Assembly (NCBI GenBank): GCA_947626945.1 | Contig: CANQUC010000001.1 | Coordinates: 33,365-97,364, forward strand | Length of the DNA stretch: 64,000 bases | DNA from: an uncultured Lachnospiraceae bacterium | GTDB taxonomy: Bacteria; Bacillota; Clostridia; Lachnospirales; Lachnospiraceae | Reading direction: 5' to 3' | In this document: one piece after another, positions 48,179 to 54,424 of the stretch | Numbering within the stretch: position 1 is the stretch's first letter | Layout: each line of letters starts with the position of its first letter | Position numbers and translations under genes: made by a program | Notes under the pieces: generated by a model | Seen by the model: only the letters and a program-made list of their open reading frames with translations | Told to the model about the DNA's origin: nothing | The model's database searches: none

Positions 48179-48261
48179 GTACAGAATGAATTTTTTGCAT
48201 GGTCCCATGGAGGGTGTTACCCGGGGGTTTGCCCAATCCATCCGGACAGATAGGGGGCTCT

Positions 48262-49074
48262 ATGGAAAGACAGAAACGAAAGATCGCGATTTTGATTTTT
48301 GTATTGGCCGCCGCCGTGCTGATGATCGGCACCATCGTGGTCAAATCTCCGGGCAGCAGCGAGTCCATCGGAGAACTGATGAAAGACGCGGTGCTGCATG
48401 AATCCAATCAGGTAAGCCTGTTCGGGCTGAAAGACGTAAATCCCGGTCTGATCTCGGCAATGGTGATCACCGGCGTTTTTTTGGTATTTTGTCTGATCGT
48501 GCGGATCTTTGTGATTCCAAGGTTTCGCATCGTTCCCGGAAAATTCCAGCTGGCTCTGGAGACGGCGGTGGGATTTTTTGACAGGCTGGCGGTTTCAAAC
48601 AGTCCCCACCGGAACGGCTTTCTGGGCGCTTATGTGTTTGCCGCCGGGTCTTATATTTTTGTGGGCACCATCTTTGAACTGTTTGGGATCCAGGCGGTGA
48701 CCACCCAGGGTACCTCGATTTCCCTGTCCGCGCCGTTGTCGGATATTAACGGAGCGGTGATGATGGGATGCCTGTCCTATCTGGTGATCCTGTCCGGCGG
48801 GATCGCGGGCAACCGGCTGCGGGGCGTGGGGCGGACCCTGAAAGAGTTTTCTCTTCCCATCTCCATGAGCTTTCGTATTTTCGGCGCTCTTTTAAGCGGC
48901 GCCCTTGTAACGGAAATGGTATATTATTATATTTTCCTCAGTTACGGACTGCCGATCCTGATCGGCGTGCTGTTTACACTGATACACGCGCTGGTGCAGA
49001 CCTATGTGCTCACCATGCTGACGGCTTTGTTTTACGGCGAGGTTTCCGAGCCTGCACATAAAGAGAAATCATAA
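48262..49074 (+). CDS. atpB: F0F1 ATP synthase subunit a
   Basis: Polytopic. Conserved stator Arg in 'SMSFRIFGALLSG'. Start at ATG 48262. First gene of the atp operon. Confidence 0.85.
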   Translation: MERQKRKIAILIFVLAAAVLMIGTIVVKSPGSSESIGELMKDAVLHESNQVSLFGLKDVNPGLISAMVITGVFLVFCLIVRIFVIPRFRIVPGKFQLALETAVGFFDRLAVSNSPHRNGFLGAYVFAAGSYIFVGTIFELFGIQAVTTQGTSISLSAPLSDINGAVMMGCLSYLVILSGGIAGNRLRGVGRTLKEFSLPISMSFRIFGALLSGALVTEMVYYYIFLSYGLPILIGVLFTLIHALVQTYVLTMLTALFYGEVSEPAHKEKS

Positions 49075-49089
49075 CGGAGGTCTTAGATC

Positions 49090-49470
49090 ATGAAAAAAAC
49101 AATGAAAAGGTTGATTGCGGTTTTGCTGCTTACAATGATGACGCTTACGGTAGCGGTTCCGGCGTTTGCTTCCGGAGAGGAGACGGCTTCACGGGAAACA
49201 GCGGTCAGTGAACAGTCCGGCGCCCAGGAAGAGGACGCGCAGGCCGCGGGAGAGAATAAAGGAATCGCGGCGGCCATTGTAGTAGGTCTTGCGGCATTTG
49301 CAGGCGCAATCGGTATGGGTATTGCCATTGGAAAGTCTGTGGAGGGCATTTCCAGACAGCCTGAGGCGGAGGGCAAAATCCGTACAACGCTGATGCTGGG
49401 CCTGGTGTTTATCGAGACCGCCATTATTTATGCCCTTGTTGTGGCGATCCTGGTAATCTTCGTACTGTAA
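49090..49470 (+). CDS. atpE: F0F1 ATP synthase subunit c with ~50-aa N-terminal signal-peptide/acidic extension
   Basis: C-terminal 75 aa form a canonical c hairpin: '[26 protein letters not shown]...[15 protein letters not shown]'. N-terminus '[31 protein letters not shown]...' looks like a cleavable signal peptide. Confidence 0.85.
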
Positions 49471-49489: not shown

Positions 49490-49978
49490 ATGCCGCTGAA
49501 TATTGACTGGCAGCAGATCCTTCTGCACTTGCTGAATTTTACGGTGCTGTTTGCCATACTGTATTTTCTGCTCTACAAACCTGTAAAGAAATTTATGGAT
49601 CAGCGGGTGGAATATTTTAAAAAGATGGATGAGGAATCCAAAGAAAAACTGGCGGAGTCCGAAAAGGCAAAGGAAGCCTATGAGCAAAAGCTTGCCATGG
49701 CGGAAGAGGAGATCCGGGAAAAGAAAAAACAGGCCGAGGCAAAGATCCGGGAGGCAGGTGACGCCAAGCTTCGCCAGGCTCAGGATCAGGCGGAAAAGAT
49801 CATTGCGGACGCGCATAAGGATATAGAAGAGGATCGGGAAAGGATGCTGAGAGAAGCCAAGTCCCAGATTACCGATATGGTAGTGAACGCCGCGGAAAAG
49901 CTGGTGGATCAGTCTACCACTTCTCAGGCCTTTGACAGCTTCCTTGACGCGGCGGAAAGAGGCGAAGCAGATGAGTAA
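49490..49978 (+). CDS. atpF: F0F1 ATP synthase subunit b
   Basis: N-terminal TM '[19 protein letters not shown]', followed by a long charged coiled coil. Confidence 0.85.
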
Positions 49979-51689
49979 AGAGGCAGTCTTATATTCCAAT
50001 ACACCGCCAAGTGAAGCCCAGAAACAGAAATTTACGGAATTTTTGAACCGGCAATATGGGGATTGTACCTTTCAATGGCAAAAGCAGGATCTGCCGGAGG
50101 GCAGTTTCCGGCTGCAGGTGGATTCCCAGGTATATGACTGGAGCGCGGAGGGCCGTCTGCTGCAGTTAAAGGATCTGCTTGCGGGGCTGAAAGCGAAAGA
50201 GGGGGAGATCATCCCTCTTTTGAGAGATACGGTCAAAAACTGGACGCCCCAGGCCCTTGCCCATGAGGAGGGCATGGTGCTTACGGTGGGAGACGGGATC
50301 GCTACGGTCTCCGGCCTTGAAAACGCTACCTATGGGGAGATTCTGCTGTTTTCCTCCGGCATCAGAGGCATGGCTCAGGATCTCCGTCACGGTGAGATCG
50401 GCTGTATTCTTTTTGGGGACGATCAGGAGATCACTGCGGGAAGCCTTGTGCGCAGGACAGGAAAGACTGCCGGCATTCCCGTGGGGCCGGGGTTTTTAGG
50501 CAGAGTGGTGGATGCCCTGGGAAGTCCCATAGACGGAAAAGGGGACATTGATACGACAGAATACCGTCCCATAGAAAATCCCGCCCCCAGCATCATTGAC
50601 AGGCAGCCGGTGGATACCCCCCTGGATACGGGGATTCTGGCTATCGATTCCATGTTTCCAATTGGAAGAGGCCAGCGTGAGCTGATCATCGGCGACCGTC
50701 AGACAGGCAAGACCGCCATCGCGCTGGATACGATCCTGAACCAGAAAGGAAAGGATGTAATCTGCATTTATGTGGCCATCGGGCAAAAGGCCAGTTCTGT
50801 GGCGCAGCTGGTTCACAATCTGAAAATGAAAGGCGCAATGGATTACACCATTGTAGTCAACGCGCCTGCCAGCGATTCCGCGCCGCTGCAGTATATTGCC
50901 CCTTACGCGGGCTGCGCTCTGGGCGAGTACTTTATGGATCAGGGCAAAGATGTGCTGATCGTGTATGACGATCTGTCAAAGCATGCCATTGCCTACCGTT
51001 CCTTAAGTCTGCTTCTGGAGCGGGCGCCGGGCCGGGAAGCCTATCCGGGCGACGTGTTCTATCTGCACTCAAGGCTTCTGGAGCGCTCGGCTCATCTCAG
51101 CGAAGAACGGGGAGGCGGCAGCATGACTGCCCTGCCCATTGTGGAGACGCAGGCAGGAGACGTCTCCGCCTATATTCCCACAAATATCATTTCCATTACC
51201 GATGGACAGATCTTTCTGGAAAGCGACCTGTTTTTCGCGGGCCAGCGTCCCGCGGTAAACGTGGGTCTTTCTGTTTCCCGTGTGGGCGGCGACGCTCAGA
51301 CAAAGGCCATGAAAAAAGCCGCCGGCGCCATCCGGCTGGATCTTGCCCAGTACCGGGAAATGGAAGTGTTCACCCAGTTTGCCAGCGATCTGGACGACGC
51401 TACCAAAAGCCAGCTGTATTACGGGCAGGGGCTGATGGAGATGCTGAAGCAGGATCAGTATCATCCCTACCGGCAGTATGAGCAGGTGATCATTCTTGTG
51501 GTGGTGCTGAGCCATTTGTTCCAGACGGTTTCCATAGGGCAGACCAGACAGGTGATGGAGCAGCTGCTGGATCATTTTCATCAGGAATATCCGGAGCTGG
51601 AGGAGCGCATTGAGACCACGGGACTTCTTTCCGATGAAGACCGGGAACAGATTGTAACCATTGCGGAGCAGTATTTGCGGAAACGGTGA
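49971..51689 (+). CDS. atpA: F0F1 ATP synthase alpha subunit carrying an N-terminal delta(OSCP) C-terminal-domain-like extension
   Basis: Alpha core: 'GDRQTGKT' P-loop, 'DDLSKHA', '[20 protein letters not shown]'. The first ~75 aa end in '[25 protein letters not shown]', matching the delta C-terminus pattern 'V(R/K)(I/V)G..(I/V)(Y/I)D.S..G.L..L...L'. ATG overlaps the atpF stop. No separate atpH. Confidence 0.85.
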
Positions 51690-51693
51690 TCAT

Positions 51694-54010
<2,317 letters not shown>

Positions 54011-54424
54011 ATGAACGTATTTCAGATGGACATCCTTGCCGCGGAAAAGATCTTTTATTCCGGGGAATGTCAGTCCCTTGTGATCCCCACCATGGACGGA
54101 TCCTATGGGATCCAGGCAAACCACAGAAATATGATCGCGGCCATTGTGCCGGGAATGCTGAAATTTACAGACCCTCAGGGAAAAACAGGCATTGCCGCTG
54201 TTTCCGAGGGACTGATTAAAGTGGAAAACAATCGGGTTCTGCTGCTGGTGGATTCCATAGAAAGACCGGAGGAGATTGATGAAAACCGGGCAAGAAAGTC
54301 CGCGGAGCAGGCAAAGGAGATCATCCTCCAGAAGAAAAGCCTGCAGGTACATCATCTTGCTCAGGCTCAGATGGCAAGAGCCATCAACCGGCTTCGGGTG
54401 AAAAGGCAGGAGGACAATCAGTAA
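54011..54424 (+). CDS. atpC: F0F1 ATP synthase epsilon subunit
   Basis: 137 aa. Beta-sandwich N-domain ('G.YGI...H') plus a helical C-terminus. Last gene of the operon; a terminator follows. Confidence 0.85.
   Translation: MNVFQMDILAAEKIFYSGECQSLVIPTMDGSYGIQANHRNMIAAIVPGMLKFTDPQGKTGIAAVSEGLIKVENNRVLLLVDSIERPEEIDENRARKSAEQAKEIILQKKSLQVHHLAQAQMARAINRLRVKRQEDNQ

Follow-up and report, generated by a model that had tools for sequence, protein, structure and literature searches.

A natural fusion of the delta C-terminal domain to the alpha subunit in an F-type ATPase operon of a Lachnospiraceae bacterium

Introduction

Delta's N-terminal domain (delta-N), placed on the pseudo-threefold axis of F1, limits the F1Fo ATP synthase to one peripheral stalk according to the reasoning of Ueno et al. 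(Nat Commun 2025;16:5410; PMC12229609), who deleted delta-N from the Bacillus PS3 enzyme and fused delta residues 105-178 to alpha (PDB 9JC1). Particles of this engineered enzyme have from one to three b2 stalks, and every stalk comes with a separate a subunit; about two a subunits are functional on average, the H+/ATP ratio is 5.8 as against 3.0, and the minimum proton-motive force is halved (PMC12229609). Natural delta-alpha fusions are named in the Discussion and Suppl. Fig. 9 of the same paper (Acidaminococcus fermentans D2RLW6, UniProt G4Q3K6 and A0A1I2C5T3), where a multi-stalk structure is graded 'highly likely' for A. fermentans, and a 2026 bioRxiv phylogenomic survey (10.64898/2026.10.01.756066) describes fusions of either the whole of delta or its C-terminal part to the alpha N-terminus. 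Here we examine a fusion of the delta C-terminal domain (CTD) to alpha in an F-type operon of an uncultured Lachnospiraceae bacterium (assembly GCA_947626945.1, contig CANQUC010000001.1, positions 33,365 to 97,364 of the forward strand); this whole stretch of 64,000 nucleotides is referred to below as the window.

An earlier note on the window was aware of no described delta-alpha fusion and held the stoichiometry to be a puzzle. Such fusions are in print in both sources above, and to the puzzle the engineered enzyme, with its up to three stalks, gives an answer by experiment (PMC12229609). The idea of a delta-alpha fusion being already published, the window counts as a good example of it rather than as a discovery. 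What it adds is a coexisting canonical operon of predicted Na+ type, counts at the level of the family, and a tree that links free-delta, full-fusion and CTD-only forms. Neither PMC12229609 nor 10.64898/2026.10.01.756066 characterises a native enzyme, and neither is known to describe a fused operon that coexists with a canonical Na+-type one.

Results

The open reading frames (ORFs) of the window and Pfam scans reveal one F-type operon on the + strand, with the order a-c-b-[deltaCTD::alpha]-gamma-beta-epsilon and no delta gene between b and alpha, as the earlier note had described it. The alpha ORF begins, also as described there, at an ATG (49971) that overlaps the atpF stop (ATGAGTAA); a Shine-Dalgarno (SD)-like GGAAAGAGG ends 8 nt upstream of this ATG, and homologues of the fused alpha start at the same position. 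The frame is continuous from 49971 to 51689, which confirms that the delta CTD is joined in frame to alpha; all three alpha copies of the complex would then have it. The fused ORF is divided as follows.

49971-51689, + strand: deltaCTD::alpha fusion ORF, 572 aa; PF02874, PF00006 and PF00306
49971..50186, + strand: C-terminal domain of delta (OSCP), spanning fused-protein residues 1-72; topology predicted as beta-alpha-beta-beta-beta-alpha
50187..50270, + strand: linker and alpha N-terminal helix; linker = residues 73-79, low model confidence
50271..51689, + strand: F1 alpha core (beta-barrel, nucleotide-binding domain, C-terminal domain), from Pfam and from Foldseek matches to F1 alpha chains

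Because the Pfam match to the alpha beta-barrel begins at residue 101 and the canonical alpha of the same genome has 505 aa as against 572 aa for the fused chain, the extension amounts to ~70-77 residues, in agreement with the ~75 claimed earlier. The three alpha domains follow in order (PF02874, E 1.4e-11; PF00006, E 1.8e-82; PF00306, E 6.8e-40), the Walker A motif is GDRQTGKT, and the alpha N-terminal helix carries the family motif IIPLL(K/R)(D/E)T..(N)WTP, in which P82 and L83 are invariant.

Residues 4-69 of the fused protein match positions 104-171 of the 172 positions of Pfam OSCP (PF00213), scoring 18.4-20.4 bits by hmmscan (20.4 bits, E 6e-4, for the piece alone), below the 22.3-bit cut-off, and 22.3 bits in a six-frame search of the genome. 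The match is confined to the C-terminal third of the profile and falls short of what would define a full two-domain delta (PF00213 above the gathering cut-off); the window segment reads as a delta fragment, not as a delta subunit. Only 3 residues precede the first CTD strand and no OSCP positions ahead of 84-104 are matched, limits that bear out the claimed absence of the N-terminal helical bundle. In relatives, the corresponding segment scores up to 44.8 bits (E 1.4e-11), and a family profile built from 12 members matches solved delta chains with E values of 1.7e-6 to 1e-4, the best match being Chloroflexus 9itj_S (E 1.7e-6), followed by E. coli, Paracoccus, PS3 and mycobacterial b-delta chains. 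A further match of the profile (E 2.2e-5) spans residues 5-98 in 9jc1_I, the delta-alpha chain made by engineering. HMMER gives a register identical to that of the motif alignment to the C-terminal strand-helix of bacterial delta proposed in the earlier note. Judged by these comparisons, the homology to the delta CTD is beyond chance, yet borderline from the window sequence alone and solid at the level of the family.

Structure prediction agrees with this assignment. An AlphaFold model of residues 1-100 (pLDDT 85-91 over residues 1-50) has the topology beta-alpha-beta-beta-beta-alpha, and its matches in the PDB are nearly all delta/OSCP C-terminal domains, led by PS3 6n2y_I (E 1.5e-4). The full-length model is mediocre because the alignment is shallow, with a mean pLDDT of 68.8 and ~50 for the linker and alpha N-helix. 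When it was compared with 350,542 PDB chains by Foldseek, the top three matches were chains I, K and J of the engineered 9jc1, which align over 566-569 columns as against ~470-508 for natural alphas.

One degenerate pattern retrieved 366 species genomes, and the best 80 of the 366 loci were fetched. All 80 hold a-c-b-[fusion]-gamma-beta-epsilon, with a fusion of 573-605 aa, and their hosts include Oscillospiraceae, Lachnospiraceae, Anaerovoracaceae/Mogibacterium, Gallimonas and the cultured Hominicoprocola fusiformis CLA-AA-H188. The same continuous frame is found in 75 full-length fusions from independent assemblies, so that the alignment of atpA from relatives called for earlier finds the fusion conserved in 80/80 fetched loci and in these 75 full-length homologues. 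A phmmer search with the 80-residue piece against 1.84 billion representative proteins yielded 166 clusters; those read were, without exception, N-terminal fragments of such fusions continuing into alpha, full-length fusions being hidden behind alpha cluster representatives, and this single-sequence search found no canonical delta.

The conserved residues of the delta CTD are F46, L48, Y55, D56, W57, G61, R62 and Q65, and across 53 sequences P13, F46, L48, Y55, D56, W57, G61, P82 and L83 are invariant. Those invariant residues that belong to the delta part fall on the strand-turn-helix, also the most conserved stretch of delta. dN is far below dS, at a rough ratio of ~0.15 for the delta CTD and ~0.06 for alpha, with synonymous sites saturated in most pairs and 6-8 of 105 pairs computable. 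In 77 homologues of b, the N-terminal anchor and a C-terminal ..EKLV..AFD.FLDAAE segment are conserved around a variable coiled-coil middle, and this C-terminal segment is the expected partner of the delta domain. Conservation of this kind indicates that the fusion is genuine, selected and widespread, and neither an assembly error nor a pseudogene.

The earlier statement that atpH is lacking holds for the window operon and fails for the genome, which has a normal atpH encoding a 185-aa full-length delta (OSCP E 5.6e-49) in a second operon on contig C21. Among 40 other carrier genomes, mostly metagenome-assembled and of unknown completeness, 4 have a free delta and 36 have the fused CTD as their sole OSCP match, a proportion far beyond what assembly gaps would explain; therefore the fused family works without delta-N. 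A third OSCP match, at C13:45516-45725 (N-domain positions 16-81, 19.5 bits), lies inside a HAMP/histidine-kinase sensor and was judged to be a chance match.

In a tree of alpha sequences, the canonical operon type (100/100) is separate from a second lineage (100/100) in which 28 deltaCTD::alpha sequences, including that of the window, form a clade (97/93). The sister group of this clade holds forms with a free delta, fusions of full-length delta to alpha (669-687 aa), a larger fusion of 778 aa and two further CTD-only cases. The latter, L115 (G047:C48) and L089 (G126:C5), branch within the sister group that holds the full-length fusions and outside the main clade, which suggests that delta-N was lost more than once in the fused lineage. 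From the tree, the likely order of events is a free delta, then fusion, then loss of delta-N, the last step having been taken more than once.

Within the family of the window, Lachnospiraceae, 121 genera were sampled. The CTD-only fusion occurs in ~15 of these (~12%), 8 of which also have a free delta, and the full-length delta::alpha fusion in 11, where it is in some cases part of the sole F-type operon. The full-length fusions share a YDWS..GR motif, and their operons have a short a and a short c without a signal peptide. Six of them, of 669-679 aa, are located as follows.

L084, 5998-8025: full-length delta::alpha
L085, 4543-6561, - strand: full-length delta::alpha
L086, 4451-6460, - strand: full-length delta::alpha
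L087, 5979-8003: full-length delta::alpha
L090, 5980-8019: full-length delta::alpha
L091, 4461-6488, - strand: full-length delta::alpha

In the 778-aa ORF (L088 5656-7992, G131:C33), alpha forms the C-terminal part and OSCP positions 54-171 are matched upstream of it. Neither b nor c was recognised as an ORF of its own between the a gene and this long ORF, which may be a b-like/delta/alpha triple fusion.

The second operon of the window genome, at C21:10022-16437, is complete and canonical, a-c-b-delta(185 aa)-alpha(505 aa)-gamma-beta-epsilon. For the Na+ ligands of its c subunit and that of the window we used positions Q32, E65, S/T66, T67 and Y70 of the Ilyobacter tartaricus-type site; the comparison is a by-eye alignment to this motif and is indicative only. 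At these positions the canonical c has Q, E, T, T and Y, the full Na+ signature (GQG...AETTGLY), and the window c has M, E, T, A and Y, a pattern conserved in its family. Because the window c is without two of the five Na+ ligand positions, we predict H+ coupling for the fused-operon enzyme and Na+ coupling for the canonical one. The genome contains RnfD, and searches of it found neither an Ech-type hydrogenase subunit nor a V/A-type ATPase.

The window c also has a signal-peptide-like N-terminus (basic n-region, hydrophobic core and AxA-like site), followed by an acidic low-complexity linker ahead of the hairpin, and this extension is conserved across the family in the c genes of L004-L083. 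Seven loci, mostly labelled Oscillospiraceae (L019, L028, L033, L034, L040, L047 and L053), have two c genes, one on each side of a. The extra gene lies ~600-1500 nt upstream of a and encodes AEQPEA (AEQAEA in L040) instead of the usual (S/A)RQPEA loop; both copies have signal peptides, and a mixed c-ring is possible in these loci.

The remaining genes of the window operon surround the fusion as listed here.

48199..49074, + strand: atpB, Fo subunit a, 291 aa when counted from the first ATG; PF00119, E 2.7e-13
49090..49470, + strand: atpE, subunit c, 126 aa; PF00137 match at residues 59-121
49490..49978, + strand: atpF, subunit b, 162 aa; PF00430, E 2.8e-24; the sole b gene of the operon
51694..52620, + strand: atpG, gamma, 308 aa; PF00231, E 3.5e-87
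52607..54010, + strand: atpD, beta, 467 aa; GGAGVGKT present
54011..54424, + strand: atpC, epsilon, 137 aa; PF02823 and PF00401; C-terminal helical domain kept

An alternative start of atpB is possible at M22 (position 48262). Its product has the essential Arg in the motif ..SFRIFGA.., and homologous a genes of 264-349 aa occupy the same position in the 80 loci. The beta subunit is 72-77% identical to that of related fused operons. All seven genes of the operon are intact and their catalytic motifs are kept. Two known arrangements were considered for the operon and rejected. A b-delta fusion of the mycobacterial type does not fit, b stopping at 49976-49978 and the fusion ORF having its own ATG in another frame; nor does an N-ATPase (atpDCQRBEFAG), the order being a-c-b-alpha-gamma-beta-epsilon rather than beta-epsilon first, with no extra small membrane genes (atpQ, atpR).

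Discussion

Our best explanation is that of a selected fusion, belonging to a distinct F-type lineage, that gives the enzyme the capacity for more than one stalk; taken whole, we give it an even chance. Delta is here reduced to its b2-docking CTD, tethered by a linker of ~7 residues to the alpha N-terminal helix, and the covalent link would replace the contacts between delta-N and alpha that hold delta on F1, so that a free delta would not be needed. With delta-N gone, nothing on the threefold axis would break the symmetry and each alpha would offer a docking site for b2; the complex could then hold two or more peripheral stalks, every one of them paired with a separate a subunit. More ions would pass per ATP, giving a low-gear enzyme that either synthesises ATP at low ion-motive force or pumps more ions per ATP hydrolysed. 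The parts of this explanation are not equally secure. That the fusion is real and acts as a stator anchor is very probable, and that the native enzyme carries more than one stalk we would put slightly below an even chance. The fusion with its homology and predicted fold, its conservation, the lack of free delta in most carriers and the lineage are shown here; for stalk number, ion ratio and ion species we reason from the example of the engineered enzyme.

Several observations weigh against this explanation. Full-length delta::alpha fusions occur in sister lineages, and because three delta-N domains cannot all occupy the axis, fusion alone is no proof of symmetric use. The engineered enzyme is itself a mixture of particles with one, two and three stalks. 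The natural carriers are known from their genes alone, the intact 63-kDa chain being a prediction, and the choice of ion is based on motif positions alone. As the genome has Rnf and no Ech, no dedicated H+ pump is evident. The window genome, unlike most carriers, has a free delta, and a mixed assembly is possible. Finally, in the stretch 50197-50222 the window has an in-frame TTG at L84, with GGAG 12 nt upstream among purine-rich linker codons (AAAGAGGGGGAG).

The alternative that survives best, a serious one although we favour it rather less than evenly, is a functional fusion with one stalk, in which one of the three CTDs engages b2 and a while the others are idle, the fusion merely holding the anchor on F1 and either the supply of a and b or the packing of the c-ring being limiting. 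The operon does have single copies of a and b, and the engineered preparation included single-stalk particles, with some particles having lost stalks. The alternative is made more credible by the full-length delta::alpha relatives, because these must have idle copies: one delta-N only fits the crown, and the others are evidently tolerated. Yet the engineered enzyme reached its average of about two functional a subunits with the fusion alone, the loss of delta-N at least twice in the fused lineage suggests a benefit from the freed axis, and no limiting mechanism is evident in the sequence.

Far less probable, in our judgement, is that the operon supplies a plain alpha through internal initiation or proteolysis, with the canonical delta serving both enzymes and the N-terminal segment being a non-functional remnant. 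The normal atpH on contig C21 and the TTG at codon 84 are in its favour, as is an AGGAG followed by a GTG at position +8 in some Oscillospiraceae relatives. We scanned 53 loci from -12 to +28 codons around the alpha boundary and found neither a start codon nor an SD conserved in that interval; starts are sporadic, and four loci (L006, L014, L020 and L064) have no start codon in it at all. The window TTG is absent from the nearest relatives, and a start at L84 would lose half of the conserved alpha N-helix. GTGs recurring at +23 and +26 after GAGGAG were rejected as candidates: they are part of the conserved codons for EEVGxV, and a start at either would remove the N-helix entirely. The earlier note had named a normal atpH elsewhere, combined with an internal start near residue 75-80, as an outcome that would undo its proposal; the first half holds through contig C21, and the second is left unsupported by the scan. 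A remnant is also at odds with an extension that is invariant at the most conserved positions of delta and has dN far below dS, and a shared delta with the 36 of 40 carriers that have no free one. In the window genome, moreover, the free delta belongs to an alpha lineage that is only ~56% identical.

A sequencing or assembly frameshift, the other such outcome named earlier, or a decaying second operon, can practically be dismissed in view of the same continuous frame in 75 full-length homologues from independent assemblies, the seven intact genes with their catalytic motifs, and the strong purifying selection on the sequence.

If native enzymes of the clade do carry two or three stalks, as the multi-stalk explanation allows, they would be natural low-gear F-ATPases whose ion/ATP ratios lie far above what c-ring size leads one to expect, with a bearing on energy conservation in strict gut and rumen fermenters near the thermodynamic limit and on the evolution of stator number. 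The clade is large (366 species genomes by one pattern) and has at least one member in culture, the strain Hominicoprocola fusiformis CLA-AA-H188, and the window genome offers a useful internal control in its canonical operon of apparent Na+ type with a free delta in the same cell. A bolder reading, which we consider unlikely, has two F-type enzymes in one cell that differ in ion and in gear ratio: a one-stalk Na+ enzyme matched to Rnf, and an H+ enzyme of threefold symmetry, in which a single c-ring is surrounded by as many as three b2 stalks and three a subunits. Were it true, the ions moved per ATP would be two to three times more in the second enzyme, for which a very small proton gradient could suffice to make ATP or could be kept up at the expense of ATP, and the alpha tree would show how a multi-stalk F-ATPase arose in nature step by step, from free delta through the fusion of full delta to alpha to the loss of delta-N.

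Comparison with known systems

The engineered PS3 enzyme (9JC1) is the closest in design. Both it and the window protein have only the C-terminal part of delta, joined by a short linker to alpha, and the window operon is likewise without a separate delta gene; the chains are near-identical in length (580 aa for PS3, 572 aa for the window). The delta parts are only ~22-26% identical. Furthermore, the PS3 enzyme was constructed artificially out of a canonical operon and is also without the epsilon C-terminal domain, whereas the window fusion is natural and its epsilon CTD is kept, its c has a signal peptide, and its alpha N-helix has a conserved motif of its own. Of the two, only the engineered enzyme has a known number of stalks.

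The fusions of Acidaminococcus and the other published natural cases resemble that of the window in having the C-terminal part of delta on the alpha N-terminus and in missing delta-N. They come from other taxa than the Clostridia clade of the window, Acidaminococcus being a member of the Negativicutes, and the 80 best of the 366 loci do not include the published Acidaminococcus examples.

The F1Fo of Chloroflexus aurantiacus (Zhang et al., PNAS 2025; PMC12002316; PDB 9ITJ and related entries), of composition alpha3 beta3 gamma epsilon delta2 a2 b4 c10, is an F-type enzyme that in its natural form has two stalks and a pair of a subunits, which a reduced delta-N makes possible. No other PDB sequence matches the N-domain of the window family as well as the Chloroflexus delta does. 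In contrast to the window, where delta-N is absent and the CTD is covalently attached to alpha, the Chloroflexus delta is free, has 157 aa, and dimerises through its short N-domains on the crown.

Mycobacterial b-delta (for example PDB 7JG5) is a further stator fusion that involves delta, and its delta CTD is homologous to that of the window. There, delta is joined to b, keeps its N-domain and occurs once per complex, whereas in the window b is separate and the delta CTD is on alpha.

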